A stretch of DNA of 64,000 nt from contig JAJECK010000061.1 of assembly GCA_022822085.1 (NCBI GenBank), positions 10,025 through 74,024 of the forward strand, read 5' to 3'. Origin of the DNA: Candidatus Poribacteria bacterium. GTDB lineage: Bacteria; Poribacteria; WGA-4E; WGA-3G. The translations under genes were made by a program, and so were the position numbers. How positions within the stretch are numbered: the stretch's first letter is position 1; each line of letters begins with the position of its first letter. Below are positions 1 to 63,337 of the stretch, in pieces. Under the pieces are notes generated by a model. It was given only the letters and a program-made list of their open reading frames with translations, had not been told where the DNA came from and did no database searches.

Positions 1-30
1 TTCATCAGTTATTATTCTGATTGCATTTAG

Positions 31-160
31 AGCGTATCTCATAAATCACTTGTAGGAGCGGGGTCTCCCCGCCCGTTTAGAAGACTCCTTTCTTATATAG
101 GGACGAGGTAACCTCGCCCGGACGATGAAGGTGTCCTATTATGATTTATGAGATATACTG
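31..160. mobile_element. MITE-like small foldback element (family C) with terminal inverted repeats TATCTCATAAATCA (35-48) and TGATTTATGAGATA (142-155). Its reverse complement matches 56789-56899 plus 57555-57589.
   Basis: Inverted termini are visible directly. The internal GC-rich palindrome gagcggggtctccccgccc is also visible. A second copy in the window (split by insertions) matches this one in reverse complement. Confidence 0.6.
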
Positions 161-186
161 TAGAATTAACTCAAATGAGTAGAACT

Positions 187-1344: not shown

Positions 1345-1359
1345 TAAGAGTCACAAGCA

Positions 1360-3639
1360 ATGAATATACAGATAGGAATTAACACTATGAAGTACATTAA
1401 TAAGAATCTGATTCGGACACGTTTTTGGTTTATAATTGTTTTCGTTATTTCGCTAACTATACTTGATCAATTTTATATTTACAGGAATGCTGACGCAATA
1501 GTGTACGCTCCAACATTTTTTGATGATATTAATTTTTCACCCGATGGCAAACGATTTGCAGCAGCGACTTCATTAGGAATTTGGCTCCATGACGCACAAA
1601 CATACCAAAAACGGCTCGTTCTCGATGGAACTGCTGGTATAGGTTATGGACAGATGTACGTTTTATTCTCACCTGATGGGAAGATGTTAGCAGTTGGTAG
1701 AGAAGGATCAAAAGAAATCCAATTGTGGAATCCTATTACAAATGAAATAATTAAGACTTTTATAAACAATTCAGCAAAGATGTCTTGCATAGCATTCTCG
1801 TCAGATGGCAAAACATTAGCAAGTGGAAACTACGACAAAACGATTTTGCTCTGGGACATAACAAGTGGCAATCTGGTAAAAACGTTAAAAGGACATACCC
1901 AAAAAATCACTTCCATTGATTTCTCTCCTGATAATGTAACTCTTGCAAGTGCAAGTTACGACAAGACAATTCGTTTATGGGACATACGCAATGGAAAATT
2001 GTATAATACATTGGATGGACATATAGATTTAGTCTATTCTGTTAGATATTCTCCAGATGGAAAGATTCTGGCAAGTGCAGGATTTCAAGAGATAATGTTG
2101 TGGGATGGACATACAGGTCAACATCTCAAAACCATTACAGGTCTTAGAGGTAGCGTTGAATCCATTGCATTTTCACCCGATGGAACAATGTTTGCAGCGG
2201 GTACTCACAAAGAGGTTAAGTTATGGAACATTAAAGAGACAGAATTTCATCCTTCAAACACGAAATTTAGCAAAACACAAACAGGTATATCATCAATTGC
2301 TTTCTATCCTAATGGAAAGACGATTGTAGGCATGAGCAGCGGTGGATTTCGCGATGTGATATTCTTTTGGGATGTTCGATCTGGACAGCAGAAGTTTATG
2401 ATATCAGACACTCAAAGAAATAGTGAACAAACAACCAAATATTCACCCGATGTAAATAGGTTAGTTCGGATTACTACAGGTAATCTATGGCAGGACGTGA
2501 TTAGATTTTGGCAAATTCCCACTAATACGTTTCAACTGTTAATTAGATCCATATTTCCAATGGAGAAAACTGAAACACGACTGTTTGATGTACATAAAGA
2601 ATTTGTCCAATCAACTATGTTCTCACCAGATGGCAAAACACTCGCAAGTATGAGTAATAGCGAAATTGTACTCTGGAACACTATTACAGGCAAACACAAA
2701 GAAATTTTAAGTGAACCATCAGCACAGTTCTATACACTTGCTTTCTCTCCTGATGGCAACACATTGGCAACGGGTGATGGATGGAATAACAATTGCATTC
2801 GTCTATGGGACACAAAAACTGGTGGGCAAATAGAAGTCCTTAAAGGACATGCTTCTTGGATTGATTCCCTTGCTTATTCTCCAAATGGTAAAAACTTGGT
2901 TAGTGGTAGTCGGGATAATACAATACGTCTATGGGACCTCAAAACTGGAAATCATAAGATAATACACAACAGGCATAATACAACGGTTCATAACACAGTA
3001 TTTTCGTCAAATGGAAAGTATCTTGCAAGTGTCCTACAAGATGACACGATCATATTGTGGGAAATGTCAACATTAATAAAGGACAATAAACCAAAAGCTA
3101 TATTAAAGGGACACACAACTCATATAAATCACCTGATATTTTCTAAAGATGGAAAAACACTTGCAAGTGGTAGTTGGGATAATACGATCCGTTTGTGGGA
3201 TACGAAAACAGGACTTTGTAAGGCAACACTTATAGGACATACTTCTGATATCAACTACCTCACATTTACACCAGATGGAAAGACATTAGTCAGTGGAAGC
3301 TATGATAGAACCGTTCGGCTATGGGAAACAATAACTGGTAGAGACCTTGCTGTCCTTGAAAAGGAAAGAGACCCACGGTTTCAGATTGTTATGTCCCCTG
3401 ATGGAAAGACCTTAGTTACTCAAGAAGATTATGAATCATTCCATTTATGGAACTTGAGAAATGGGAAACTCCGTCATTCTATAAAAGAAGATCAGGTTTA
3501 TTTCGATGCCTTCGCTTTTATAAATGGTGGTACGACTCTGATAAGTATGGATTGGAGTGATACATTACATGTTTGGAATTCGGGTATTGGTGGTTACAAG
3601 ATAAAAATAAAAACTAAGGAAGATTCAGACTTCAGATAG
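1360..3639 (+). CDS. WD40-repeat protein with N-terminal transmembrane anchor (759 aa).
   Basis: N-terminal TM helix (FWFIIVFVISLTILD). At least 10 WD repeats with (S/F)SPDGK...LAS and D.TIRLWD motifs. 15-bp gap to the upstream paralog. Confidence 0.85.
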   Translation: MNIQIGINTMKYINKNLIRTRFWFIIVFVISLTILDQFYIYRNADAIVYAPTFFDDINFSPDGKRFAAATSLGIWLHDAQTYQKRLVLDGTAGIGYGQMYVLFSPDGKMLAVGREGSKEIQLWNPITNEIIKTFINNSAKMSCIAFSSDGKTLASGNYDKTILLWDITSGNLVKTLKGHTQKITSIDFSPDNVTLASASYDKTIRLWDIRNGKLYNTLDGHIDLVYSVRYSPDGKILASAGFQEIMLWDGHTGQHLKTITGLRGSVESIAFSPDGTMFAAGTHKEVKLWNIKETEFHPSNTKFSKTQTGISSIAFYPNGKTIVGMSSGGFRDVIFFWDVRSGQQKFMISDTQRNSEQTTKYSPDVNRLVRITTGNLWQDVIRFWQIPTNTFQLLIRSIFPMEKTETRLFDVHKEFVQSTMFSPDGKTLASMSNSEIVLWNTITGKHKEILSEPSAQFYTLAFSPDGNTLATGDGWNNNCIRLWDTKTGGQIEVLKGHASWIDSLAYSPNGKNLVSGSRDNTIRLWDLKTGNHKIIHNRHNTTVHNTVFSSNGKYLASVLQDDTIILWEMSTLIKDNKPKAILKGHTTHINHLIFSKDGKTLASGSWDNTIRLWDTKTGLCKATLIGHTSDINYLTFTPDGKTLVSGSYDRTVRLWETITGRDLAVLEKERDPRFQIVMSPDGKTLVTQEDYESFHLWNLRNGKLRHSIKEDQVYFDAFAFINGGTTLISMDWSDTLHVWNSGIGGYKIKIKTKEDSDFR

Positions 3640-3654
3640 ATATGACAATTTTAG

Positions 3655-3796
3655 ATCATCAGGACTTACGCATTTTCTCTTAAAGTCCCCTTGATAAGGG
3701 GGATTTAGGGGGTTAAAAAGACTAAAAACACTGAAATATCGCATCATTTAACCCCCCTACCCCCTTATCAAGGGGGAATGCGTAAGTCCTGATCAT
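3655..3796. mobile_element. MITE-like foldback element with 17-bp perfect inverted termini ATCAGGACTTACGCATT (3657-3673 and 3777-3793, the latter as reverse complement) and an internal long hairpin (ccccttgataaggggg...ccccttatcaaggggg).
   Basis: Terminal and internal inverted repeats seen directly. Related termini (CAGGACTTAC) recur at 35464-35585 and 48465-48735. The element sits between two WD40 genes. Confidence 0.65.
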
Positions 3797-3823
3797 TTTA
3801 TCATACATGTTTCAGGAGTACTC

Positions 3824-5932
3824 ATGAGAAAACTGATTGTAATTCTTATAGCAATGTTACAGTTCCTGCCAAGTGGTTCTACCCAAGAATATTCAAAATG
3901 GGAATTACCTGAAGGTGCCTTGGCACGCATTGGAAAAGGACACATTACAGGTAACATTGTGTTTTCACCTGATAGTAAAATGTTAGTTATTCCGAGTTCA
4001 ATTGGGATCTGGCTATATGATGCAACGACATACAAAGAACTCAAGCTGCTGACAGCAGATGTGTCTAATATTGTGTTTTCACCTGATGGACTTATGTTTG
4101 CCGCTAATGATTCATCAGATAATTCTGTTGAATTGTGGGATATATCTTATGACCCAATCCAGATGAAATACAAAACTACACTAAAAGGTCATACAAAAGA
4201 TATTACGAGCATTAAATTTGCATCTGATGGTAATACGATTGCAACAGCAAGCGAGGATAGGACAATTATCTTGTGGGATATAAATACTAGCGAGAACAAG
4301 TATGTCCTTAAAGGACATACAAGAAAAATAAACGCTATTGTCTTCTCTTCAGATAACAGCATGTTGGCAAGTGGTAGTGATGGTGGAACAGTTATACTGT
4401 GGAATACAGAAACTGGTGATCAGATATTTATGTTCAAGGCAGAATCTAAGGACAAGCACTATAGAAACGCGGTGTCTGCTGTAGCATTTTCACCAGATAA
4501 CAAGGCTCTTGTTAGTCTAACCTATGACGGATCAATCCGATTATTTGATGTGAAATCCGGAGAACATATTCGGACACTCAAAGGGAAATTGTATGGTGGT
4601 CAACCAGAAGACTATTCAATTGCATTCTCTCCAGACAAGCAGACAATAGTAACTATAAATGATAATAATACAGAATTGTGGAACTTTAAGACAGGCAAAC
4701 TGCACTGGCAACATAAGGGACGAATACATATCTCTCCAGATTGGAGTCGATATGCGAGTGCGAAACAGACTGAAATCGAAATATGTGATATGAACGAGAG
4801 AAAACTGGTTAAAACACTTACTGATTTTAAATCGAGATACAAACCTTTGGTATTTTCTCCAGATGGTAAAAAACTTGCAAATGAACTGGGAATCTGGGAT
4901 GTTGACAATGATACGCACGTCTTCATCAATGAAGAACACGGTTTAATTGGTTCACCTGTGAGATTCATTCACGATGGAGACACAATTGCCAGTTGGGGGT
5001 ATAAACAAATACATCTATGGGATATAAATACTCAAAAGCAGATTAGAACTTTCTTAGGAGAGGTCACAGCAATGTCATCAGATGGAACTTTGATAGCAAC
5101 TGGTATTAAAAAGGTTAATAATTGGAATGAACCTTACTTTATACAATTGTGGAACACAAAAACGGGTGTAGGGGAACGGATAATCTCTACTGACAATAAG
5201 AATAGATTGCAGTTAATTCACTTTTCTCCAGACGGTCAAACATTGGTAAGTCGTGTTTTGAGTTCTGATCCCACACTTGAACTCTGGAATGTGAGTACAG
5301 GTGAACATAAATTAACAATCAATACCAAACCCTATAACGTTAATTCTGTAGAGTTTTTTCCTGATAGTCAAACGTTGATCGGTTTAGGCGATTATGGTAT
5401 TCCATTGTGGAACGTTGAAACCGGTGAGCTTATGACAACACTAAAAGGACATACAGGAGGCGTGGATTTTATTGTGTTCTCACCCGATGAAAGTGTTTTA
5501 GCGAGTGCCAGTTTTGACGAGACAGTTCGTCTGTGGAATACAAGGACCTTTGAACTCATTGCAACTCTTATTGGACATACAGAAAAAGTTTATTCAATTG
5601 TCTTTTATCCAAATGGTGAAACCGTAGCAACGTCAAGCTTTGGAGGGATTACTCGTACGTGGGATACAAAGACCGGACAACTTAAGAAAACACCCCTTGA
5701 ACATGAACCACATGCAATTCACCCAGATGGAAAAACATTAATAAGTTTAGGCGCAGGTAAAATTCAGTTTGTAGACACAAAAACATGGGAATCCATTCTG
5801 ACGCTTGATAACCATACCGATTACATTAGTACAATTATAGTATCTAAAGATGGAAAAACTATAGCAAGTGTTGGCAGTACTATTCTGCTCTGGAAAGCTG
5901 ATAATCCGAACCTATTACCTGTTAGAGAATAA
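3824..5932 (+). CDS. WD40-repeat protein, secreted (signal peptide MRKLIVILIAMLQFLPSGST).
   Basis: Signal peptide. Repeated FSPD(G/S)..LAS and D.T(I/V).LW(D/N) WD motifs throughout its 702 aa. Confidence 0.85.
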   Translation: MRKLIVILIAMLQFLPSGSTQEYSKWELPEGALARIGKGHITGNIVFSPDSKMLVIPSSIGIWLYDATTYKELKLLTADVSNIVFSPDGLMFAANDSSDNSVELWDISYDPIQMKYKTTLKGHTKDITSIKFASDGNTIATASEDRTIILWDINTSENKYVLKGHTRKINAIVFSSDNSMLASGSDGGTVILWNTETGDQIFMFKAESKDKHYRNAVSAVAFSPDNKALVSLTYDGSIRLFDVKSGEHIRTLKGKLYGGQPEDYSIAFSPDKQTIVTINDNNTELWNFKTGKLHWQHKGRIHISPDWSRYASAKQTEIEICDMNERKLVKTLTDFKSRYKPLVFSPDGKKLANELGIWDVDNDTHVFINEEHGLIGSPVRFIHDGDTIASWGYKQIHLWDINTQKQIRTFLGEVTAMSSDGTLIATGIKKVNNWNEPYFIQLWNTKTGVGERIISTDNKNRLQLIHFSPDGQTLVSRVLSSDPTLELWNVSTGEHKLTINTKPYNVNSVEFFPDSQTLIGLGDYGIPLWNVETGELMTTLKGHTGGVDFIVFSPDESVLASASFDETVRLWNTRTFELIATLIGHTEKVYSIVFYPNGETVATSSFGGITRTWDTKTGQLKKTPLEHEPHAIHPDGKTLISLGAGKIQFVDTKTWESILTLDNHTDYISTIIVSKDGKTIASVGSTILLWKADNPNLLPVRE

Positions 5933-6030
5933 GTGCAGTGTATTACCTAAAAGTTATACCTAATTCACCTGAGAAATCCAAATTCATTGTGGGATGAGAT
6001 ATCAGGGAATGCCTAACGGAGGAACAACAA

Positions 6031-8286
6031 ATGAAAGACTTTAACAACCACCAAAACACACTCAGCTCAAGGCTCGTATTCATCATCTTAGTATGTCTAA
6101 TCTTCTATCTCCTTCTGTACATTCCTATACCTGTTGATGCTCACAGTGTGTCTGAAAGTTCTAAAATCAAAGATTTCGCCTATTCACCTGATGGAAATAG
6201 ATTGGCAATAGCTGCTCATGATGAAGTATGGTTATTTGATGCACTCACCTATGAAAAACGACTCACTATAGAGGATAGGACACATCCTTTTGGTGGATGG
6301 TACAATCATGTTGTGTTCTCACCTGATGGAAGGACATTAGCAAGTGTAAATAACCGAAATGATGAGATTCAATTATGGAATCCAATCAATGGTGAAAATC
6401 TATTATCAATTCATGAACCAGCAGAATATATTACTTCTATTAGGTTTTCACCAGATGGGAAAAGAATCGCAAGTGAAGGATCAGATGATAATATCAGAAT
6501 ATGGGACGCACACACAGGTCAACTTATAAAAACTCTCAAAATTGACTTAGGTTCATCATTTACATTTTCGCCTGATGGTAATACGATTGCAACGGCAGGA
6601 TATCAGAAAGTCCATTTATGGGACGCACACACAGGTCAACTCATAAAGACATTTAATGGACATACAGATTTCGTGTTTTCAGTTGTATTCTCACCAGATG
6701 GAAAGATACTTGCAAGTTCAGGTTTTCAGGAAATTCTATTATGGGATCCACAAACAGGCAATAAACTAAATACGCTTGCTGGACATAGAGGGTGTGTTGA
6801 ATCTCTTGCTTTTTCTCCTGATGGATTGACACTTGCTGGTGGAAGTTACCAAGAAATATTACTGTGGGACGTTAGTGAAGCAAAACATCTCGATACACTT
6901 TCACTTAGAAATATTTTTACAGCAGGAGTTACTAAAATAGTATTTTCTCCAGATGGGAAGAAGATTGCAAGTATGAGTGATTCATATTGGAACAGGATTA
7001 TAATATGGGATGTCGAAACTGGAAAGTATAATCTAATGATCAAAGATGACCGGATATACAACAGCACTCCAATTAAATTTTCACCAGATGTCAATACTGT
7101 AACCTATATCGTTGAAGATTCATTATCGGGTTGGCAATACGTGTTCGTCTCCATGCAATTGCCTATAGAAAAACTTGTAACTGGAAAGACCAACATCGGG
7201 AAAATACAACGTCAAGGCACTAAATTAAGTAAAGTCCATGAAATACCTGTCTTCTACCAATCACCCGTTAAATCAACGTTTTTTTCACTTGATGGAAAAA
7301 CGACTGTTAGTATAGGCAACAATGAAATCGCTCTATGGGATACAGATTCAGGCAAACACAAAGTTACAATTAAAGACGAATTCAAACAAATATATTCTGT
7401 AGCATTATCTCCCGATGGGAAGACTCTCGCAAGTGGAAACGGTTGGAATAACAATCAGATTCGCTTATGGAACGCAATAAATGGAAATCTCATATCAATC
7501 CTCAATGGACATACGTCATGGATTGATGAACTGGCATTTTCACCAGATGGGAAAACGCTGTTCAGTGCAAGCCGGGACAATACAGTCCGTCTGTGGGATG
7601 CAGAGACAGGCGATCATAAAGGCACACTCAAAGAACATACCGCAGGTGTACATACGATTGAATTCTCACCCAATGGTGAACTGCTTGCAAGTGCATGTCA
7701 AGACAACACAATAATGCTATGGGAAGTGTCGTCTACTTTGTTGAACGATAAACCTATAGCAACCTATGTGGGACATACAGACAAGATCAATCAAATCAAG
7801 TTTTCTCCAAACGGTAACACACTTGCAAGTGCAAGTTGGGATCATACAATAAAGTTGTGGAATATTGATACTGGAAAAACTGAGACGCTCAAGGGACATT
7901 TCTCTCGAATTGATTACCTTGAGTTTTCAAAAGATGGGAACACTCTGATTAGTGGTAGTTTGGATAGAACTATCCGCCTATGGGACACAAATTCTGCCAC
8001 ACTCCGTACTATCCTTCAGAAGAGCAGAGAACGAAATTCACAAATAGTTCTGTCACCAGATGGGAAAACATTAGTTAGCAAGGAAAATTATAATTCACTT
8101 CACTTATGGGATTTGAATACGGGGAAACTCCAAACTTCCTTCAATGGAGGAGACTTTGAGACTTATGAATTCTTACCAGATGGTGAAAGCCTAATTAGCA
8201 CAGAACATCCTCAATATGGATTATATGTGTGGAATGTTGAGACTGGAAAACTTCAAAGGAAAATAGAAACACGAAACGTTAAATGA
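6031..8286 (+). CDS. WD40-repeat protein with N-terminal transmembrane anchor (751 aa).
   Basis: TM segment (LVFIILVCLIFYLLLYIPIPV). WD repeats (DDNIRIWDAHTGQ, DNTVRLWDAETGD, DHTIKLWNIDTGK). Confidence 0.85.
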   Translation: MKDFNNHQNTLSSRLVFIILVCLIFYLLLYIPIPVDAHSVSESSKIKDFAYSPDGNRLAIAAHDEVWLFDALTYEKRLTIEDRTHPFGGWYNHVVFSPDGRTLASVNNRNDEIQLWNPINGENLLSIHEPAEYITSIRFSPDGKRIASEGSDDNIRIWDAHTGQLIKTLKIDLGSSFTFSPDGNTIATAGYQKVHLWDAHTGQLIKTFNGHTDFVFSVVFSPDGKILASSGFQEILLWDPQTGNKLNTLAGHRGCVESLAFSPDGLTLAGGSYQEILLWDVSEAKHLDTLSLRNIFTAGVTKIVFSPDGKKIASMSDSYWNRIIIWDVETGKYNLMIKDDRIYNSTPIKFSPDVNTVTYIVEDSLSGWQYVFVSMQLPIEKLVTGKTNIGKIQRQGTKLSKVHEIPVFYQSPVKSTFFSLDGKTTVSIGNNEIALWDTDSGKHKVTIKDEFKQIYSVALSPDGKTLASGNGWNNNQIRLWNAINGNLISILNGHTSWIDELAFSPDGKTLFSASRDNTVRLWDAETGDHKGTLKEHTAGVHTIEFSPNGELLASACQDNTIMLWEVSSTLLNDKPIATYVGHTDKINQIKFSPNGNTLASASWDHTIKLWNIDTGKTETLKGHFSRIDYLEFSKDGNTLISGSLDRTIRLWDTNSATLRTILQKSRERNSQIVLSPDGKTLVSKENYNSLHLWDLNTGKLQTSFNGGDFETYEFLPDGESLISTEHPQYGLYVWNVETGKLQRKIETRNVK

Positions 8287-19134: not shown

Positions 19135-19214
19135 GTAGGTCGGGTAGAGGCACGAAACCCGACAGGATAACCACAATCAATACATGTCGGGTTTCGTGCC
19201 TCTACCCGACCTAC
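19135..19214. repeat. Perfect 30-bp-arm inverted repeat (gtaggtcgggtagaggcacgaaacccgaca / tgtcgggtttcgtgcctctacccgacctac) with a 20-nt loop.
   Basis: The arms are exact reverse complements. It is intergenic, between the 17604-18992 and 19376-20422 genes. Confidence 0.7.
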
Positions 19215-24088: not shown

Positions 24089-24146
24089 TCCCATTATAAG
24101 ACATCAAAATTATTTGATGTCTTATAATGGGTATTTAAGCTTTTTT
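24089..24146 (+). terminator. Hairpin with 19-bp perfect arms (cccattataagacatcaaa / tttgatgtcttataatggg) followed by a T-rich tract (tatttaagcttttttg).
   Basis: Seen directly. It lies just beyond the stop (24156) of the minus-strand protease gene. The T-run orientation is plus-sense, so function is uncertain; it may be a bidirectional terminator or an operator. Confidence 0.4.
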
Positions 24147-46682: not shown

Positions 46683-46885
46683 TCAAATTCCCTCATTTAT
46701 TATTTTTTGTTCGTATGTTTAGGAAAGGTTAGTTGACAGTTGGCATTTCATCTAACAGCTACGCTTAAAAATGCCAAATCAACACTGAACATTCAGTGTT
46801 GATTTGGCAATCTCATGACTTGCTTATTCAAGAATGGCACGGTAAAATTCTCTTGCACATTGTTTAAATTATAGAATAATTGAGA

Positions 46886-48464: not shown

Positions 48465-48735
48465 TCAGGACTTACAGACATACTGTAGGTAGTGAATACC
48501 AAATGAAGATTAAGTTATTAAACGGGTAATGTTAGTTTTCCCAAGCCTGGTAGGTGCGGTTTCCTAACCGCACCGAGCATAGTTATGGAATTACCTAATT
48601 TATTTTTTAATCTTCATAAGGCATTTATATCGTTGATTTGGTGCTTTGTAAGCACGCTGAATTTACAGAATTCTTCTGAAAATTACACATTTTTAGTAAA
48701 TTATAGAAAAATCGTGAAAATTGCGTAAGTCCTGC
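48465..48735. mobile_element. Composite MITE: outer element with CAGGACTTAC inverted termini (48465-48480 and 48721-48735) containing a nested copy of repeat B (48503-48620).
   Basis: Termini seen directly. The inner 118 bp is about 95% identical to 57440-57553. Confidence 0.55.
48503..48620. mobile_element. Repeat B: about 118-bp MITE-like element with inverted termini ATGAAGATTAAGTTATTAAACGGGTAAT / ATTACCTAATTTATTTTTTAATCTTCAT and a central hairpin (ggtgcggtttcctaaccgcacc).
   Basis: A near-identical second copy is at 57440-57553. Terminal and internal inverted repeats are visible. Confidence 0.65.
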
Positions 48736-50030: not shown

Positions 50031-50321
50031 TCGTGTTTTTTATTGAGCAATCTATATAGGGAAATGTAAATATAGCCTCTTTCATGATCATGGGAGAGGC
50101 TGCAATTTTGTATAGTGATTGCAAACCGTCTGTCCTGTTTTTGACTTCAGATAGATGAAATAAAGAAAATATATTCTTGACACAAAAAGGTATCTGTTTT
50201 ATCATGTTCATGAATAGTGATATCCTCGTAATCCTGAGGAAAATAATAAAAGTAACATTACGAACATTATAGATTGGACTTTTTATTTATGTTGATGTTA
50301 GGAGGAAAAAACGAACGGAAC

Positions 50322-55430: not shown

Positions 55431-55566
55431 CTACACTGTTATATATGGATGTGGTGAGATATGTACGGGATTTTAAGCAAATGTGAATAAAACGCGTTCC
55501 TTGACTCTGCAAACAGGTTTTGATACAATTCAAGTACAGATGTTTAGCGAAAAGGAGCGGAAAATG

Positions 55567-56685
55567 AGACGTTTTGGCACACAAGGTCCCGTCAATCCTC
55601 AAGAACACTACGTTGTTTCAAGGTCCGAAGAAATAGCGGACTATATCAAGCGCGTTGAAGAAGGTAAATATGTCGTCCTTTTTGCACCACGTCAAACAGG
55701 CAAAACCACCTTCTTTCAAGCAGCTTTAGAAACACTCACTGTTGGGACTGTGACAAATACTGCTGCTATATATGGAGAAGCCGATACAAAGTTCAACTAC
55801 CTCCCTATCCAACTAAATTTTGATGTGTATAAGAACACGTCTGTTGCCGAATTTTACGATAACCTATATCAAGACATTTGCGAAGAAATCGAGAACCTGT
55901 TTCAGCGACGCGACGATATACTTCCTGAAGCTTTAAGTCAATTATTGGAGGATACAAAACTAACAGACCATCATGCAATGAGAAGGTTTTTTGGACACCT
56001 CGAACGTTTACTATCCCCACAGCAATTCGTCCTAATCATTGATGAATTTGATGGTATACCCCCATCTGCCCTCAGTGATTTTCTACATACGCTACGTCAT
56101 ATCTATATTTCGGGTAAGCCTCGGTGCCCGCACAGCGTTGGAATCATCGGAGTTAAGAGTATTGCACAACTCAACTACGACCGCTCAATTTCCCCCTTCA
56201 ATATCCAAGACGAATTCCATCTCCCTAACTTTACCCTTGAACAAGTGCAGGAATTACTTACACAATATACAGATGAAGTCGAACAACCCTTTGTCCCAGA
56301 AGTTATAGTCTCTATTCATAAACAGACTGCCGGACAACCCGTGCTTGTCAACCGATTCGCACAGATACTCACCGAAGAGTTAGACATCCCGAAGACCGAA
56401 TCGATTACCATGACGCATTTTTCAATGGCATACGCACAAATACTTGAGGAGGATAATGTCAATCTCACACATCTGCTTACTAATATCCGCAAAGATCGCC
56501 GATTTGAAAACCTGTTAATGCGGATCATGGAACGTGAGGATAGTGTGGTCTTCAACATTTATAATGATACTATTAACGAATTAGCCACGTATGGTGTAAT
56601 CAAAGAATCGCCTAACGGGATGTGTGAGATACTGAATCCGATTTATCTCTATCGTATCATGAAGACCTTCAAATCGACAGCATAA
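55567..56685 (+). CDS. AAA-like ATPase domain protein (P-loop NTPase). The ORF track starts at 55483.
   Basis: Walker A (FAPRQTGKTT) and Walker B-like (LIIDEFD). Broad ORC/Cdc6-like AAA family; exact family unknown. Confidence 0.6.
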   Translation, partial: RRFGTQGPVNPQEHYVVSRSEEIADYIKRVEEGKYVVLFAPRQTGKTTFFQAALETLTVGTVTNTAAIYGEADTKFNYLPIQLNFDVYKNTSVAEFYDNLYQDICEEIENLFQRRDDILPEALSQLLEDTKLTDHHAMRRFFGHLERLLSPQQFVLIIDEFDGIPPSALSDFLHTLRHIYISGKPRCPHSVGIIGVKSIAQLNYDRSISPFNIQDEFHLPNFTLEQVQELLTQYTDEVEQPFVPEVIVSIHKQTAGQPVLVNRFAQILTEELDIPKTESITMTHFSMAYAQILEEDNVNLTHLLTNIRKDRRFENLLMRIMEREDSVVFNIYNDTINELATYGVIKESPNGMCEILNPIYLYRIMKTFKSTA

Positions 56686-56788
56686 AGAAGCGGTATTACA
56701 CTGTTTTTGATCATCGGGAGCAGCCAGAACCGCGAGTAGAAACGGAAACGATTGAGAGGTTGACAATGCGGAGTGCTGTAGGATAAAC

Positions 56789-57589
56789 TTCCTACAGTAT
56801 ATCTCATAAATCATAATATTACACCTTCATTGTAGGGGCGAGGTTACCTCGTCTCTATATAGAAAGGGTTCTTCTAAACGGGCGGGGAAACCCCGCCCCA
56901 TAGGTGTCAATTTAAGAATATGTCCGCAAAGTAGTAGGCACACTCCGTGTGCCGTCCACGATAATAGTTTTCAGAAAGTAGTCCGCGGACGCCATGTGCT
57001 ATGATCTTTTTGCTTGCGGACGGCACACGGAGTGTGCCTGCTACCTTTAAATCTCCGCTAAATTGACGCCTATAGGGCAGGGAAACCGAGCCCCATAGGT
57101 GTCAATTTAGTGTCTACTATAATAAGATTTGACCTGTTCTTATGTAGCACAAACTTTATGAAGATTAATTTATTAATTCGGTAATTTATTATCCGTACGA
57201 GACAGGTGTCCTCCGTCGCTGGCGAGGCGGGGAATGCCTAAATGGCATTCATACCGTTGATTTCTTCCTAACCTCGCCAAATTACCGAAATATTTTCTAA
57301 ATCTTCATAAAGTTTGCGGTACAAAAAGAGTTCCGCGATTTTATAAATCCGATAATCCCGATTCAGACACCCCTGGCGCAGCGAAAGCGCGCCTGTGAGG
57401 GGGGCAAAATGTCTTAAATTGACGCTTATGGGGCGGGAGATGAAGATAAAGTTATTAAACGGGTAATATTAGTTTTCCCAAGCCTGGTAGGTGCGGTTTC
57501 CTAACCGCACCGAGCATAGTTATGGAATTACCTAATTAATTTTTTATCTTCATGACCCCGCCCCTACAAGTGATTTATGAGATACGCTC
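56789..57589. mobile_element. Nested cluster of MITE-like repeats. A family-C copy (56789-56899 plus 57555-57589) is interrupted by: a 22-bp-arm hairpin (56933-57043), a palindromic CCCCATAGGTGTCAATTTAG element (57056-57110, with half-sites at 56886-56920 and 57412-57437), a family-D element with TIR CAAACTTTATGAAGATT (57147-57318), and a repeat-B copy (57440-57553).
   Basis: All inverted repeats and the matches to 31-160 and 48503-48620 are visible by direct comparison. The cluster fills the roughly 1.07-kb gap between the AAA ATPase gene and hsdM. Confidence 0.6.
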
Positions 57590-57761
57590 TAATTTGTGCA
57601 GTCCCGGACGCCAACTAAAAATTTGCACTATAATTGTGTGTAGGTCCTTATGGTTTCTACTATAATCCATAACAGATCGGCAATTTTGAACTTGACAAAT
57701 ATTCTAAAAACCTCTATAATCGTGATAATTTTGTTAAGCAATAGATAGGTACAAATGAATA

Positions 57762-60023
57762 ATGAACCAAACTGATTTCCTACAGATAGGACAGCAAAAA
57801 GGATATATCCAACTCCTTAACGACGAAAAAAGAATCCACTACGTTGTCCCCGATAAAAATTATAGATTCACCGACCCAGAAGAAAAGATTCGCGCAAGGT
57901 TTTACGTTGAGTTAATTGAACAGTTTCAATACGATCCCAGCTTAATTGAATTAGAAGTACCTGTTCCACGTCGCACTCCTTCCGATTTCGCTGACATTGT
58001 TGTTTTCCAAGACGATGACAAGAAAACTCCTTTTATTGTAGTTGAATGCAAAAAAGATGGTATTTCTGAGGCAGAATTCAAGCAGGCAATTGAACAGGTT
58101 TTTGGTAACTGCCACTCTTTACGTGGACATTACGCCGCTGTCGTTGCGGGGAATACGCGCAGATCCTTTGATGTCAAAAACTATAAACCCGGTGAACGTT
58201 CACAAAACATCATTGCCGATCCGCCAGTCAGATATGGCGAAGTCCAAGAGTGGCGATATCTAAAGGGTGTCCCACAGTCAGAACTCTCTGTTATTGAAAA
58301 AGATGAGCTCATCCGTGTTCTTGGACAATGCCAAGATACGCTTTGGCAAGGCGGTAAACTTGCACCAACCGACGCATTTGATGAACTCGCTAAAATTCTC
58401 TTCATAAAAATTCGAGATGAAAAGAAGGCAAGACGAAAAGGTGAACCTTACGATTTTCAGATTAAGACGCATGAAACTCCAAAATCGGTTGCAAACAGAA
58501 TTAACAGGCTATATAAAGATGCAAAAGCACAGGACCCTGAAGTATTTACAGAAAATATTGAAATTGATGAAAATCGCTTGGTTTCCGTTGTCAATCATTT
58601 GCAAGGGATCAGTCTCAACCAAACTGATTTGGATGTGAAAGGTGTTGCCTTTGAAAAGTTTTTAGGTAACTTTTTTAAGGGCGAAACCGGGCAATTTTTC
58701 ACGCCACGTCAAGTAGTTGAGTTTATGGTGGACATGGTTAACCCTGATCATGAAGAGCGAATCCTTGATCCCGCATGCGGTTCGGGTGGATTTTTGTTGC
58801 ATGCCATGGATTACATCCGAAAACAGGCATCTGAGTACCACGATAAAGAAAGTCGTGAACACTACCTCCACTGGCATGATTTTGCGGAAAAACGCCTCTT
58901 CGGAATTGAGGTTAACGATTCCATCGCCCGCGTTGCTAAAATGAACATGATTATTCATGATGATGGACATAGTAACGTCATTAGCAATGATGCACTCATT
59001 AATTTCGACATACTCTACAAACAACACAATAGTTTTGAAAAAGAGAAGTTTGATACAATTCTTACCAATCCGCCTTTTGGAGCAGTTGTTAAACAGTCTG
59101 AATCACCGTATCTTGATAAGTTTGAACTCGGAAAAGGCAATCAATCTCAAAAGACCGAGATTCTGTTTCTTGAACGATGTTTTGATTTTCTTAAGTGGGA
59201 AACTGGCAAGCTCGCGATTATCCTACCGGATGGCATCTTGACCAATTCCTCATTGCAATACGTTCGAGATTACATTGAACGACACTTTAAAATTCTTGCT
59301 GTTGTTTCGCTCCCGCAAATTGCTTTTTCGCATTATGGTGCTGGTGTAAAAACGTCTATCCTATTTCTCCAAAAGTTTTCTGAACAGGAATATAATCGTT
59401 ATCAAGCTGCCATCGATCAAATCACGGCAAAAAATGAATCAGTCTTTACGCCTAAGATTGATGAACTTGAAAATGAAAAACAATCTATTATTAAAAAAGG
59501 TTCTCCAGCACAAGTTGATGTAACAGAAAACTATAGACAGCAATTCATCTCAATTTTGGATAATATTGATGCCTTAAATCAGAAACTTGACAAAGCACCA
59601 ACGAAAAAGGTTCAAGACCTCAGTGCCTTTTTCTTTCCAGAAATTGAATCTACACTTACTACAGAATTTGAATTGTTTGACCCGCAAACAGCACGCGCTG
59701 AACTTAAGGAACAGACAAGCGCGTTGAACGATCTTGAAAAGCAATACAAAGAGGCGTTTAAAGCAGCAGCCGATTCGGAGTGGGAAAGTGAAATAAAAGC
59801 AGAATATAAGGAAAAGATTGACGCTGTTAAAGAGGAATGGGAAGAAAAGAACACAGAGGACATCCGCGAGTGGGTTCGGGAAAATGCTAATCATCCAATC
59901 TTTATGGCAATTGCCGAGCGTATCGGCTACGATGCAACAGGGCGGAAAGACCCGATTAACGATCTCAAAGCTATCTGTGAGGAATACCGAAAATTTATCG
60001 AGAACCCGGATTTTTTCGGGTAA
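57762..60023 (+). CDS. hsdM: Type I restriction-modification system DNA methyltransferase subunit M, with a C-terminal coiled-coil extension.
   Basis: N6-adenine methylase motifs (FFTPRQVVEFMV, DPACGSGGFLL as motif I, NPPFG as motif IV) and an HsdM N-terminal domain. Confidence 0.85.
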   Translation: MNQTDFLQIGQQKGYIQLLNDEKRIHYVVPDKNYRFTDPEEKIRARFYVELIEQFQYDPSLIELEVPVPRRTPSDFADIVVFQDDDKKTPFIVVECKKDGISEAEFKQAIEQVFGNCHSLRGHYAAVVAGNTRRSFDVKNYKPGERSQNIIADPPVRYGEVQEWRYLKGVPQSELSVIEKDELIRVLGQCQDTLWQGGKLAPTDAFDELAKILFIKIRDEKKARRKGEPYDFQIKTHETPKSVANRINRLYKDAKAQDPEVFTENIEIDENRLVSVVNHLQGISLNQTDLDVKGVAFEKFLGNFFKGETGQFFTPRQVVEFMVDMVNPDHEERILDPACGSGGFLLHAMDYIRKQASEYHDKESREHYLHWHDFAEKRLFGIEVNDSIARVAKMNMIIHDDGHSNVISNDALINFDILYKQHNSFEKEKFDTILTNPPFGAVVKQSESPYLDKFELGKGNQSQKTEILFLERCFDFLKWETGKLAIILPDGILTNSSLQYVRDYIERHFKILAVVSLPQIAFSHYGAGVKTSILFLQKFSEQEYNRYQAAIDQITAKNESVFTPKIDELENEKQSIIKKGSPAQVDVTENYRQQFISILDNIDALNQKLDKAPTKKVQDLSAFFFPEIESTLTTEFELFDPQTARAELKEQTSALNDLEKQYKEAFKAAADSEWESEIKAEYKEKIDAVKEEWEEKNTEDIREWVRENANHPIFMAIAERIGYDATGRKDPINDLKAICEEYRKFIENPDFFG

Positions 60024-60175
60024 GCCCTGATAGAGAAAATCAGATTTTTCTTACTTATCGGGGCGATATTCCTGGAAGAATTGATCCGAATTACATTAGT
60101 AACGTTTCCTTTATCAATAATGTAAACTCTCGTTATCCATTAGTTCCTCTGCGGAATTTACTCACAGAGCCGCCG

Positions 60176-61417
60176 ATGTACGGAGCAAACGAAATAGCAA
60201 TAGATGGAGATCCTCAAAAAGATGTGCGATATATTAGAATCACTGACATTGATGATCATGGAAACCTTCATAATGAAGATTGGAAAACAGTAAAAAAGAT
60301 TGATGAAAAATATATGCTTGAGGGAAACGATCTTTTGTTTGCTAGAAGTGGTGCTACAGCCGGTAAAACATTTATCCACAAAAGAGAACATGGAAGGGCA
60401 ATTTTTGCGGGGTATCTGATTCGTTTTCGCTTTGATGAAACTCGAGTAAACCCCTTCTTTGTGTTCTATTATACTCTATTAAGTCGATATAAGTCTTGGG
60501 TAAAAATAATACAAAGACCTTCAGGACAACCTAATATCAATTCAAGGGAATTTAAGGCATTTGAAATTCCTCTCCCACCGTCCAGCATCCAGAACCATGT
60601 TGCCAATATAATGAGATTCGCCTATGCTCAGAAAAAGCAGAAGGAACAAGAGGCAGACGCACTTTTGGATTCAATTGATGATTTTGTGTTATCAGAATTG
60701 GGTATTGAAATACCAGCAGCTGAGGAAAAGAAGTGTTTTGTGGTTTATGCCAACGAAACAACTAAGGAACGTCTTGATTCGCACTACCATCAGCCTCGCT
60801 ATAAGAAACTTTACAGCGTCATAAATGACTATGGCCGGGTATTCTCTTTGAAAAGTTTAGTGAGCGAATTAGATTACGGTATTATGCCAACACAAGATTA
60901 TGCAAATTCGGATGATTCTGGTGTCCCGATAATAAGAGTTACCAATCTCCTGCCAGATGGAAGCATTGACATGTCTGACGTTAAATACATTCCGTTTGAT
61001 ACTCCAAGACTAAATTTGAAACGCGTCAAAACTAATGATATTCTGATGGTTCAATGTGGAAGTACTACGGGTAAAATAGCTCTCGTTCCCAAAAGTTTTG
61101 AAGACTACACTTTTGGGTCTTTCATGTTTGTCATAAGGGGAAAACGAGAAATTATAAACCAAAATTACCTATTTGCAATTTTGTCAAACCGTTTAATTCA
61201 GGAACAAATTAGGCATACTTGGAACATTGTTACAGTACGTCCAAATACCTCAAAACCCAGTGTTGAAAATCTTTTGATTCCTGTTCCTTCCATTGAAATT
61301 CAGGAGCGAATTGCTGAGGAAGTGATGGCCAGAAAATCCGAAGCCGCGAAACTCAGGCAAGAAGCAAACGCTGTCGTGGAAGCAGCGAAAAAGAGGGTTG
61401 AGCAGATTCTATTGTAA
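60176..61417 (+). CDS. hsdS: Type I restriction-modification system specificity subunit S. The first ATG is at 60176, but the frame is open back to the hsdM stop at about 60024 with no canonical start, so the true N-terminus is uncertain.
   Basis: Two target-recognition-domain-like halves separated by a conserved helical spacer (...LPPSSIQNHVANIM...) and a C-terminal conserved region (IPVPSIEIQERIAEEV). It sits immediately downstream of hsdM. Confidence 0.75.
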   Translation: MYGANEIAIDGDPQKDVRYIRITDIDDHGNLHNEDWKTVKKIDEKYMLEGNDLLFARSGATAGKTFIHKREHGRAIFAGYLIRFRFDETRVNPFFVFYYTLLSRYKSWVKIIQRPSGQPNINSREFKAFEIPLPPSSIQNHVANIMRFAYAQKKQKEQEADALLDSIDDFVLSELGIEIPAAEEKKCFVVYANETTKERLDSHYHQPRYKKLYSVINDYGRVFSLKSLVSELDYGIMPTQDYANSDDSGVPIIRVTNLLPDGSIDMSDVKYIPFDTPRLNLKRVKTNDILMVQCGSTTGKIALVPKSFEDYTFGSFMFVIRGKREIINQNYLFAILSNRLIQEQIRHTWNIVTVRPNTSKPSVENLLIPVPSIEIQERIAEEVMARKSEAAKLRQEANAVVEAAKKRVEQILL

Positions 61418-61510: not shown

Positions 61511-63337
61511 ATGTCAGCGGATCTTACAATCTATTGTTTGGAACAAGTCACAGATTACTTTGAATTTGAACGACTCTGTCATGACTTGATGTCGCGGGAG
61601 GGATATAGTTCTATTGAACCTCTTGGTAGTTTTAAGGATAAAGGACGGGATGCTATTCACGTCAACGAGTCTGATAAAACTACAATATTCGCGTATAGTG
61701 TTAGTGAAGAGTGGCGAGTGAAACTTGCTGAAGACGCGGAAAAGGTCCGTAAATATCAACACCCCTGTGAACAGTTTATCTTCATTACAACCGCAAAATT
61801 CACAGCATATCAACGAGACGAAGCAGTTGCATTTATTAAAGACGAATTTGGTTGGCAATTGGAACTCTTTGGTGTTGAACGCTTGCGAATTCTTCTTGAC
61901 GTGAGTCATCCTCAGATTAAAAGACTACACCCAGGTATTTTTCCGTCAGAATTTCTTGCAGTTCAAGATCGGACTGACGACTCAACGGAGCGGCATCATC
62001 TTTTCATTAGTTGTGTTAGTAAAGATGGAGTGTTTGCAGATTGGTTGACGAGAAAACTAACAGCAGAGGGTTATTGTGTTTGGTCTGAGCGTTTCAAGTT
62101 GCTTGGAGGCGAACCTTATCCTGATGATTTAGATGAGGCGATTAAAAATCGGACTTTTAGGTTTTTAGGTTTGTATTCAAAAGCGTCACTTAACAATCAA
62201 GAAGTAATGCGCCAAAGATCGCTTGCTCTCAGCCTGAGAAGTGAAGATATTCAAGATTTTCTCATACCCTTGGATGTAGATGGTGTAAATCAGGAGCAGT
62301 TAGACAGTGTTACAAAGACATTGCAATTCGTTTCGTTTAAGGACAATTGGGCAGATGGACTAAAGCAATTGCTAAAAAAACTGGAATCTATTGACTGTCC
62401 ACGATTGTTACCAAACGGAGAACGTATTGTTGCAGAATCGTTTTTAGGAAACGATGTCCGCTCGGACGAAGAAGAAACCCTATATTCAAATTGCTTACGA
62501 ATTCTCCAGATACCTGAAATTATCCATCGTTTTACAGTAGAGGGTAAAATCCCAAAAGAAAAACTTAATAAACTCAAATCTGAATGGAGTTGCCGAAAAG
62601 TTGATTCCAATACATTTCTTAGTTTTCATAAACCTCCCACTTCAATTGTTGAGGAGTACCACGTGAACGAAATAGGGGGAGCTATATGGGCAAACACTAC
62701 AGTAATAAATGGAATTTCGACGTTTAACTTGGTATCTGAACTTATCCGTAAAGCTTTAATTGTGAAGTGTTATCAGAAAGGCTTGCAATACTGCTCTGAA
62801 GCAAAATTACTCTACTTTCCTTCAGATCTGGTGAATAAAGATCGACTCGAACTTATTCACCCTGATAGTGGTTCAAAAACCTATGTACTTTCTAATGGGA
62901 AAAGAAAACATCCATCAGGAAGGGAATACCTATATTCGCTTGCTCCCGACTTTTATGTACGTCAAGACCTTTTTGATGGTTTCACAGTTCTAATTCGCAT
63001 ACGGGTTCGTCTTTCAGGTACAACAGGTAAAGCCTTCACTACTAAACGTACAATTGATTCACGACGAAAACATCTATGTAAAAACTGGTGGAATAGACAT
63101 TGGCTTAACCGGACTTTGGCTGTCAGTCAATTTCTCGCGGATGACAGAAAGATAACAATTGGAGAATCGGAAGACGTGCAAATCGTTATTGACGCAAACC
63201 CATTGCGTTTCAATGTTCCAATAGGCATTAACGAACAAGCACTTGATAAACTCAATTATGAACGCTCAGAATCGATCAGAATCCATGATAGTGAAGAAGA
63301 TGAGTATTTAGACGAATATATTAGTGATGGTAAATAA
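61511..63337 (+). CDS. Multidomain defense protein: N-terminal Mrr-like (PD-(D/E)xK) restriction-endonuclease domain, central TIR domain, and a C-terminal roughly 300-aa domain that is probably APAZ (Mrr-TIR-APAZ).
   Basis: N-terminus (GSFKDKGRDAIHV...FAYSVSEEW...QFIFITTAKFT) has an Mrr_cat-like D...E.K layout. Residues around 160-290 (HHLFISCVSKDGVFADWLTRKLTAEGYCVWSE...IKNRTFRFLGLYSKASL) fit the TIR pattern (FISxxxxD...A..L...L...G..VW). The APAZ call is inferred from operon context with a downstream pAgo-like ORF. Confidence 0.6.
   Translation: MSADLTIYCLEQVTDYFEFERLCHDLMSREGYSSIEPLGSFKDKGRDAIHVNESDKTTIFAYSVSEEWRVKLAEDAEKVRKYQHPCEQFIFITTAKFTAYQRDEAVAFIKDEFGWQLELFGVERLRILLDVSHPQIKRLHPGIFPSEFLAVQDRTDDSTERHHLFISCVSKDGVFADWLTRKLTAEGYCVWSERFKLLGGEPYPDDLDEAIKNRTFRFLGLYSKASLNNQEVMRQRSLALSLRSEDIQDFLIPLDVDGVNQEQLDSVTKTLQFVSFKDNWADGLKQLLKKLESIDCPRLLPNGERIVAESFLGNDVRSDEEETLYSNCLRILQIPEIIHRFTVEGKIPKEKLNKLKSEWSCRKVDSNTFLSFHKPPTSIVEEYHVNEIGGAIWANTTVINGISTFNLVSELIRKALIVKCYQKGLQYCSEAKLLYFPSDLVNKDRLELIHPDSGSKTYVLSNGKRKHPSGREYLYSLAPDFYVRQDLFDGFTVLIRIRVRLSGTTGKAFTTKRTIDSRRKHLCKNWWNRHWLNRTLAVSQFLADDRKITIGESEDVQIVIDANPLRFNVPIGINEQALDKLNYERSESIRIHDSEEDEYLDEYISDGK

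Follow-up and report, generated by a model that had tools for sequence, protein, structure and literature searches.

The gap between an AAA_35 ATPase gene and the type I restriction-modification gene hsdM, at positions 56792-57592 of a 64,000-nt stretch of Candidatus Poribacteria DNA (the window, on whose numbering all coordinates of the gap are given), is a genuine stack of small non-coding mobile repeats inserted in one another. We consider it likely that this stack is a nest that feeds its own growth, made of repeats found specifically in Candidatus Poribacteria, located at the left edge of a variable defence slot and with no demonstrated function of its own. The nest probably grew since at least one of its repeat families, here termed B/E, lands on the tips of hairpins brought in by earlier repeats. 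A preliminary description of the window had already read the gap as a hotspot of nested foldback elements at the boundary of a defence island. This reading is largely right, and a nested cluster of miniature transposable elements with inverted repeats (MITEs) at an island edge would be of an ordinary kind, seen in a new host; what the present analysis adds is a rule by which the B/E elements choose their targets, together with the repetitive extragenic palindromes (REPs) and transposases among which they live. Related stretches used for comparison with the window carry L numbers. L001 is one independent (Logan) contig from the same strain and begins at window position 57628, and L004 is an independent assembly of a related species from a separate sample.

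The nest lies between the decayed AAA_35 gene and the conserved hsdM promoter. As described previously, an element of family C is split by about 650 bp: its halves (56792-56899 and 57554-57592) are 654 bp apart, and the intervening sequence holds two D units, three copies of C's own GC-rich hairpin, the inverted doublet F, the element E with a 37-nt insert, and a copy of repeat B. Hairpins and D units alternate in the order H1-D1-H2-D2-H3 (Table 1). Treated as single-stranded DNA, 56792-57592 folds at -184 kcal/mol (z = -18.7 against shuffles), and six of the nine GC-rich perfect hairpins (stem of at least 7) of the 64-kb window fall within the 0.74 kb from 56776 to 57511. All five features of the preliminary description were found where it had placed them. 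The hairpin said to have 22-bp arms, F, has a 22-nt perfect core within arms of 30 nt that are 93% complementary (56928-56957 and 57018-57047). The palindromic unit CCCCATAGGTGTCAATTTA does recur, in four copies rather than three (56896+, 57059-, 57091+ and 57415-; 0.01 expected by chance), and the unit CCCYATARGYGTCAATTTA is the tail of a composite module in which a variable GC hairpin is followed by ATAGG and then by YGTCAATTTA. The supposed 170-bp element corresponds to a 167-bp block (57150-57316) whose termini match perfectly over 17 nt; the outer 8 nt of these (CAAACTTT/AAAGTTTG) belong to the target hairpin, leaving a shorter element proper, E. The B copy is 97% identical to a second one at window 48503-48617.

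Copies of these repeats were counted in a genome sample of about 1.04-1.1 Mb of loci and, together with a metagenome sample, in 1.9 Mb in total. Each family is represented again in the window or in genomes of other Poribacteria, and all repeat searches returned Poribacteria metagenome-assembled genomes (MAGs). Members of B/E are 105-161 nt long, contain no open reading frame and end in terminal inverted repeats of about 28 nt (ATGAAGATTAAGTTATTAAACGGGTAAT / ATTACC...CTTAATCTTCAT, also written ATGAAGATTAAG...CTTAATCTTCAT). At least 13 near-full-length B copies, at about 80-84% identity, were counted in genomes of other Poribacteria (census of about 1 Mb), its terminal-repeat pattern occurs in at least 120 metagenome stretches, and full-length relatives of E were found in L004, L079, L087 and L122; in the 1.9 Mb there are 45 unique full-length B/E copies. 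The two window copies of B, so similar to each other, share no more than 84% identity with those of other genomes. The elements of the nest are thus discrete, multi-copy and recently mobile.

The insertion sites of B/E follow a common rule. For this analysis the ends of the element were set as ATGAAG...CTTCAT, and a metagenome scan with the B terminal repeat served as an independent sample. In the genome sample, 22 of 24 copies carried a 1-nt duplication (chance 0.25, p = 5e-11) and 19 of 24 lay in perfect stems of at least 5 bp with a 3-nt loop (chance 0.0012, p = 1e-49). When both samples are taken together, perfect symmetric palindromic flanks surround 31 of the 45 copies and bulged ones about nine more, that is, approximately 40 of 45 copies sit on the symmetry centre of an unrelated pre-existing palindrome, as compared with 0.1% of random sites. 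In 24 copies the centre is odd and its nucleotide stands at either side of the element (21 of 23 two-nucleotide-offset copies and three one-nucleotide-offset copies), and at least five are even-centred, with the palindrome reaching the element and no duplication; the E copy of the window (TT|AA) is one of these. The flanking stems comprise at least 12 unrelated sequences, for instance GCAAACT, CCCCCTT, GCGCGCTT, GTCCC, GGCATAC, TTTTTTC, CATATCT and GGGGCGGG. The rule that fits both classes is that B/E inserts exactly on the dyad of a pre-existing palindrome. Target duplications for this family are of 0 or 1 nt and lie at the palindrome centre; none that was convincing was found for C or F.

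Unoccupied targets were also recovered. The hairpin GGGGCGGGGAGACCCCGCCCC, which in the nest contains B, is intact in L004 (2750-2775), at window positions 80-20 and in L104, and the junctions of B are base-precise against these three empty sites. An empty GCACAAACT-TTT-AGTTTGTGC hairpin adjoins E in L004 (2484), and a paralogous pair of loci is empty in L066 and filled in L035. In 1.1 Mb there are 21 empty hairpins of the form CAAACT-NNN-AGTTTG and 20 of the form GTCCC-NNN-GGGAC.

A rival account of the gap is one in which unrelated MITEs would have landed randomly, with no structural target preference, in a neutral "safe haven" beside a dead gene and accumulated there passively. A 412-nt deletion and a premature stop have indeed left the AAA gene decayed, the nest is upstream of an intact hsdM promoter, and the corresponding gaps of relatives hold different inserts as well. 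The insertion points are nevertheless non-random, B being in a hairpin loop, E on a palindrome dyad and the 37-nt unit in a REP loop, and the excess of B/E copies at palindrome centres over random sites is what random landing would not give. We therefore regard passive accumulation as unlikely.

Several observations weigh against growth of the nest by hairpin targeting, or narrow what can be drawn from it. The 1-nt duplication was seen in only 7 of 20 B/E copies of the metagenome sample, and the distinction between odd and even centres was framed after the metagenome data had been seen. Many of the targets come from the GCAAACT hairpin family, and a preference for that family, rather than recognition of structure as such, could give part of the signal; the re-pairing control stood at 9.6%. 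Both locus samples were picked by repeat motifs, and their counts are not per-genome copy numbers. The D1/F and B parts of the nest are present in the window assembly alone, the same-strain contig L001 starting only downstream of them. The reading of D as a unit that duplicates its hairpin, discussed below, is drawn from loop orientation in only 10 pairs, and the transposase gene that we associate with the REPs lies in a relative, L057, and not in the window. Finally, no transposase-bearing copy with B/E termini was found in the 1.9 Mb of locus samples.

Among known systems, the closest behaviour to that of B/E is the targeting of REPs by insertion sequences (ISs), mobile DNA with repeated extragenic palindromes as its chosen target. 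Insertion of IS1397 creates duplications of 3-4 bp, and its primary papers reportedly place it centrally within the palindromic unit; recognition by IS110 elements is RNA-guided and sequence-specific. The REP-targeting elements described include IS1397 and ISKpn1 of the IS3 family and IS621, ISPpu9, ISPpu10 and ISPa11 of the IS110 family (PMC1525189). Such elements are autonomous and each is tied to one REP sequence type, whereas B/E is non-coding and occupies the dyads of unrelated palindromes with duplications of 0-1 nt.

By their build, B/E elements resemble bacterial MITEs, such as Correia, Nezha, Chunjie, ERIC and others (PMC3184786). They are small and non-coding, have terminal inverted repeats, occur in many dispersed copies, fold into long hairpins and are present or absent at orthologous sites, with both filled and empty sites known. 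What sets them apart is that the fixed-length target-site duplication of DDE-type elements is replaced by 0 or 1 nt, that no matching parent IS was found in the 1.9 Mb, and that the target is set by symmetry or structure. An IS630-like element of L005 was considered as a parent and rejected, its terminal inverted repeats (ATACCAAATTAACG...) being different; a TA duplication of the IS630/mariner type and a 3-bp duplication of the IS3 type (TG...CA ends) were likewise rejected, as the flanks of most copies are incompatible with either. Our literature search found no report of miniature inverted-repeat elements in Poribacteria. Mobile repeats of 20-40 nt lying inside other repeats were reportedly described in Nostoc punctiforme (Elhai et al. 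2008, Genome Res 18:1484); the 37-nt unit in the loop of E may be similar, although phylum and sequences differ.

Table 1. Features of the AAA-hsdM gap and its borders, in window coordinates
Feature	Position	Strand	Description and basis
AAA_35 ATPase ORF, truncated	55483..56685	+	400 aa; Pfam, homologues, BLASTN against L004
Leftover of AAA 3' coding end	56686..56791	+	Past the premature stop; aligns to last ~100 coding nt of L002, L004 and L005
Element C, left part	56792..56879	+	Terminal inverted repeat CTACAGTATATCTCATAAATCA, GTAG-headed hairpin GGGGCGAGGTTACCTCGTCTC; aligns to window 163-27 and L104
Hairpin H1	56880..56899		GGGCGGGGAAACCCCGCCCC; first of three copies of C's terminal hairpin
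D1 unit	56900..57073		Ends ATAGGTGTCAATTTAAGA and GCTAAATTGACGCCTAT; core is the F doublet; D-end motif analysis
F	56928..57047		Two inverted copies of REP-like unit AAAGTAGTAGGCACACTCCGTGTGCCGTCC, 60-nt spacer; REPIN-like
Hairpin H2	57074..57094		AGGGCAGGGAAACCGAGCCCC; diverged middle copy, common to D1 and D2
D2 unit	57095..57429		Ends ATAGGTGTCAATTTAGTG and TCTTAAATTGACGCTTAT; 91-98% identical to L004 2424-2761
Target hairpin, left arm	57147..57157		GCACAAACTTT; pairs with AAAGTTTGCGG at 57309-57319
Element E	57158..57308		B/E family, ends ATGAAG...CTTCAT; inverted relative to L004 counterpart in same flanks
37-nt unit	57228..57264	+	CGGGGAATGCCTAAATGGCATTCATACCGTTGATTTC; within loop of E's central REP hairpin (57221-57278)
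Target hairpin, right arm	57309..57319		AAAGTTTGCGG
Hairpin H3, left arm and half loop	57430..57439		GGGGCGGGAG
Element B	57440..57553		114 bp; terminal inverted repeat ATGAAGATAAAGTTATTAAACGGGTAAT; central REP 57486-57511; in H3 loop, 1-nt (G) duplication
Hairpin H3, right half	57554..57564		GACCCCGCCCC
Element C, right terminal repeat	57565..57592	+	TACAAGTGATTTATGAGATACGCTCTAA
Spacer	57593..57662	+	Common only to L004 (97%); two CTATAAT boxes
Copy of AAA stop-codon and spacer sequence	57663..57684	+	TAATCCATAACAGATCGGCAAT
hsdM promoter	57692..57720	+	TTGACA, 17 nt, TATAAT; 12/12 matches; conserved in L002 and L004
hsdM	57762..60023	+	753 aa; first gene in variable defence slot

The other components of the nest also occur elsewhere. 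An intact 137-bp copy of C lies on the minus strand at window 27-163 and is 90-97% identical to the split copy, and the census of about 1 Mb gave one further full copy, in L104; the intact copies have one terminal hairpin and no D. The D-end motif was matched 55 times in 1.04 Mb against 4 expected. D units measure 160-410 bp and are bounded by inverted tail pairs, one end reading ...TTTAGYGG and the other ...TTTAAGRAA, and they are flanked on both sides by hairpins of the same type. Global-alignment scoring of the orientation of these flanks was uninformative and was replaced by loop-by-loop inspection, by which eight of ten pairs of flanking-hairpin loops were direct and two inverted; no further D pairs were found in the metagenome sample. 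The direct flanking hairpins recall the palindrome-associated transposable elements (PATEs) derived from IS200/IS605, which have direct sub-terminal hairpins, a fixed target tetranucleotide and neither terminal inverted repeats nor a duplication, yet D has 16-nt inverted termini and its flanking hairpins are of the target's type rather than constant. F has the form of a REPIN, that is, inverted REPs separated by a 60-nt spacer. Elsewhere the arm unit of F stands alone behind genes (L002 7204, L005 7840) or is repeated in tandem (L105), and in 1.04 Mb only the arms recurred, with no second instance of the doublet with its spacer as a replicating unit. The 37-nt unit is absent from the E copy of L004, and stretches of 36-39 nt that are 100% identical to it were found in different Poribacteria species (L087 5035, L092 1999, L093 3358 and L097 3081). 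A plasmid search with the 1-kb gap gave no match, nor did a search of viral contigs with the D unit.

Further repeats of these kinds were noted along the way. The 36-39-nt unit CGGGGAATGCCTAAATGGCATTCATACCGTTGATTT occurs in tandem and within REP loops, and consists of a variable hairpin and a conserved tail, CGTTGATTT, an architecture like that of the D ends (CGTCAATTT). Tandem arrays are formed by hairpin-plus-D-tail units, with periods of 236 and 169 nt, and by the F-arm REP, with a period of about 37 nt (L066 1195-2005 and L105 274-418). The window contains a second, smaller nest at 48466-48735, where a hairpin unit of the AATGCC type, carrying the other B copy in its loop, lies inside an element whose termini are CAGGACTTAC.... 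The CAGGACTTAC terminal-repeat family is also present at window 3655-3796, with empty CCCCTT-NNN-AAGGGG hairpins; hairpins of this type are B targets in L114 and L077. Other long perfect hairpins of the window are located at 19135-19214, 24090-24131 and 46772-46809 (as listed, a perfect inverted repeat of 30 nt that starts with GTAGGTCGGG, an AT-rich stem of 19 bp and a 17-bp stem with a GTTGATTTGG motif).

The GC hairpins of the nest, namely H, the arms of F and the hairpins inside C, are genuine REPs. GTAG or CTAC stands at the foot of 35% of the triloop hairpins as compared with 4% of random sites (the loop-4 class, biased by the scan pattern, was left out of this count), and GTAG precedes H, the F arms, the GCAAACT hairpins and those of C. 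A scan of one genome per species for the core hairpin of B (pattern GGTAGGNNNGGTTTCCTAACC, 21 nt) returned at least 118 stretches against the approximately 17 that we estimate for a collection of this size, and among the matches listed the titles name Candidatus or uncultured Poribacteria in every case except one ("uncultured bacterium"). Using as tblastn query an E. coli sequence of a REP-associated tyrosine transposase (RAYT), we obtained a match in L057, a locus with six hairpin copies. Its positions 2012-2485 encode a 157-aa protein with a Pfam Y1_Tnp domain (E = 1.7e-16); among solved structures it matches those of ISDra2 TnpA and of E. coli TnpArep (4er8). The gene is bordered on both sides by arrays of the hairpin CGGTAGGCACGGTTTCCTAACCGTGCC, and is single-copy, without tnpB and accompanied by cognate REPs, as is characteristic of RAYT genes. 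A second Y1 family, of 159 aa, is found at three loci and is bordered by GCACTCC-NNNN-GGAGTGC hairpins. The two RAYT-type families, each with its own hairpins, are located at L057 1350-3050 and 7019-7498, L015 5634-6113 and L102 463-939, and in L057 up to five tandem partial hairpins (GGTAGGCACGGTTTCCTC repeated) adjoin the Y1 gene.

The closest match for the nest hairpins is therefore provided by the REP clusters (bacterial interspersed mosaic elements, BIMEs) and REPINs that accompany RAYT (TnpA_REP, Y1) transposases in E. coli and Pseudomonas (PMC3116915, PMC3479197). In common with these, the nest hairpins are short, GC-rich, extragenic, GTAG-headed and dispersed in high copy number, and they are found alone, in inverted pairs (F and the two hairpins of C) and in tandem arrays. 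They differ in that another element family uses the REPs of Poribacteria as landing sites and that these REPs lie within larger units bearing terminal inverted repeats.

Comparison with relatives confirmed that the gap is a hotspot, since the inserts in the gap after the AAA gene differ between all relatives in which there is such a gap: L002 has 245 nt between AAA and hsdM, with a single unrelated palindromic element of about 135 nt, L004 has 1243 nt with another mix of elements, and L005 has 497 nt with yet others. L004 carries D2, E, the hairpin and the right part of C in the same place as the window, and this part of the nest is therefore no assembly artefact. The orientation of E is opposite in the window (57147-57319) and in L004 (2484-2641) within identical flanks; beside E, a further 28 nt in L004 contain a second GCACAAACT hairpin, which is empty. 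The inversion and the extra hairpin suggest recombination or deletion between adjacent similar hairpins.

Repeat mis-assembly was a concern, as the source is probably a MAG and the same-strain Logan contig breaks within the region, and the order H-D-H-D-H superficially resembles the repeat-spacer or attC-cassette order of a degenerate CRISPR- or integron-like array. An artefact or an array of this sort is nonetheless scarcely credible: the independent sample and species of L004 reproduce part of the nest, the B junctions agree to the base with empty sites, the "spacers" are dispersed repeats with inverted termini of their own, and no cas or intI gene is found nearby in the window region. Short-read Logan contigs of the strain and of a relative were seen to break at repeats, L001 starting at such a point and L003 ending inside the palindromic element of L002.

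To the left of the nest, the AAA_35 ATPase gene is decayed. Its relatives encode 544-551 aa with a C-terminal DUF8371 domain; the window gene (55483-56791) is short of 412 nt, which correspond to L004 1440-1851 and are not a multiple of three; it stops early and has lost the DUF8371 domain. The named homologues of the AAA protein are from Poribacteria, and with the repeat matches they led us to reject a cyanobacterial origin, to which WD40 repeats and GC content had first pointed. Housekeeping genes encoding HEAT-repeat proteins, an enolase-superfamily enzyme, mnmA and miaA lie upstream. To the right, the final approximately 100 nt ahead of hsdM, promoter included, are conserved among relatives, and the gene order continues with hsdM, hsdS, a REase-TIR-APAZ gene and a short prokaryotic Argonaute (pAgo) gene, followed by a convergent DUF488 gene. 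The PADLOC matches were E = 2.5e-85 for REase-TIR-APAZ and E = 8e-170 for the short pAgo, the latter read from L001.

The slot between AAA and DUF488 is a variable defence island, in which defence genes are present or absent among relatives and the flanks are conserved. It is empty in four relatives (L124-L127), where only 17-23 nt separate AAA from DUF488, and elsewhere its cargo varies: hsdMS with a PDC-M48B-like gene in L002, TIR-APAZ and pAgo only in L005, a RecQ-like helicase in L128, and hsdMS with Mrr-TIR-APAZ and a short pAgo in the window. The proposal that the island is accessory and horizontally acquired is therefore borne out as regards presence and absence; recent acquisition of hsdM is not. 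Nucleotide identity to L002 and L004 is 86-88% for hsdM and 85-88% for the flanks, and no identity jump at the gap, which would be a sign of recent transfer, was found, with 85-88% on both sides. As hsdM has diverged as much as its flanks, hsdMS is not a recent arrival in the lineage of the window.

The position of the nest at the left edge of a slot that is empty in four relatives also suits another reading, in which the nest would be the remains of the ends or attachment site of an element that delivered hsdMS and pAgo, and would mark the recombination junction of the island. L004 offers some encouragement for such a scar, with a 22-nt direct repeat, TAATCCRTAACAGATMGGCAAT, that includes the AAA stop codon and brackets the entire nest (1981-2005 and ~3140-3160); it could be a long target duplication or a product of recombination, and the window retains only its right copy (57663-57684). 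The slot, however, contains no integrase or recombinase gene, all components of the nest are dispersed multi-copy families at unrelated loci, and the right edge shows no comparable, nest-like structure, pAgo and DUF488 being separated by 14 nt. Moreover, hsdM is as diverged as the flanking genes, and L002 has hsdMS with a single, different palindromic element in its gap. A scar of island integration is thus quite improbable, and hairpin-directed target choice explains the stacking better.

The island itself resembles other defence islands that combine type I restriction-modification with a short pAgo and TIR-APAZ (SPARTA-like), the likeness consisting in a slot that is empty or differently filled between two conserved genes; the resemblance concerns the neighbourhood of the nest and not the nest, and the window slot has no hsdR. 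The hsdM gene carries an N-terminal HSDR_N_2 domain, with hsdS beside it (57762-61417) and no hsdR gene within the slot; HsdM and HsdS also match, more weakly, the MADS components mad2 and mad5. REase(Mrr)-TIR-APAZ is encoded at 61511-63337, and the 497-aa short pAgo runs from 63341 past 64000 (L001 3884-7207). The two form a SPARTA-like pair with an additional nuclease domain, and a related pair is alone in the slot of L005. A second insertion hotspot is found nearby, in the gap between the upstream HEAT-repeat genes, where relatives hold ISs (IS630-like and DDE_Tnp_4 at L005 2850-5110, DDE_5 at L124 3540-4895; the equivalent gap of the window is 50031-50273). WD40-type repeats with a 126-nt period dominate window positions 1-8100, and no tRNA gene was found in the window.

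Alternatively, the hairpins of the nest might act between AAA and hsdM as terminator, insulator or mRNA stabiliser, or encode a structured non-coding RNA serving the defence genes. Effects of REP clusters on mRNA stability are known, as is their binding of IHF, gyrase and DNA polymerase I (PMC1525189, PMC3184786); the fold of the nest is very stable, and three CTATAAT-like boxes face hsdM. Against such a role, no Rfam family reached threshold, only spurious miRNA hairpins appearing below it, no terminator-like site was found, the sole strong promoter, that of hsdM, is conserved and lies downstream of the nest, and the content of the gap is not conserved among relatives. We hold a regulatory function to be very improbable. 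The three boxes (CTACTATAAT or CACTATAAT; 57113-57123 inside D2, 57632-57640 and 57655-57665) are good -10 hexamers without a matching -35.

Our preferred explanation, growth of the nest on hairpins supplied by its own members, would combine GTAG-headed REPs, presumably served by RAYT-type Y1 transposases encoded elsewhere, with REPIN-like doublets (F and the two hairpins of C), D units placed between copies of their target hairpin, and the MITE family B/E. B/E would integrate at the two-fold centre of a palindrome, the tip of a hairpin or cruciform, whatever its sequence, so that an odd-centred target (3-nt loop) would show its middle nucleotide at both borders of the element, and an even-centred one would show no duplication. 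Each inserted element carries new hairpins and therefore new targets, so that elements nest. The arrangement of the gap suggests that C entered the decayed 3' end of the AAA gene first, that D1 and D2 followed at C's terminal hairpin, that E was inserted into a GCAAACT hairpin of D2 before the split from L004, that the 37-nt unit then entered the REP loop of E, and that insertion of B into the third hairpin was the most recent step.

From the symmetry of the B/E sites we infer a two-fold symmetric enzyme whose recognition targets would be extruded hairpins or cruciforms, or else hairpins formed in single-stranded DNA; it would join the element at the dyad, with a stagger of 1 nt where the loop is odd and without one where it is even. 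D, for its part, may integrate at the base of a hairpin, with the result that the hairpin is duplicated, and the nest would then grow by positive feedback. Tentatively, we propose that B/E is a MITE that targets DNA shape rather than sequence, that D duplicates a whole hairpin, that both form a self-amplifying ecology with the REP/RAYT system, and that the enzyme lies outside the characterised IS families.

If this proposal is true, Poribacteria would possess a structure-specific integration enzyme unrepresented among characterised IS families. Hairpin targeting as such gives the pile-up of repeats a mechanistic reason, the import of hairpin targets, where the usual appeal is to neutral "safe havens". 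The dyad-centre rule, with its duplication of 0-1 nt, is checkable on complete Poribacteria chromosomes and could lead to the structure-recognising transposase. REP/RAYT systems and several MITE-like families, none of which we found reported there, are hereby documented in an uncultured, largely sponge-associated phylum. Such nests also fragment short-read assemblies at the edges of defence islands and thereby bias the detection of these islands in MAGs.

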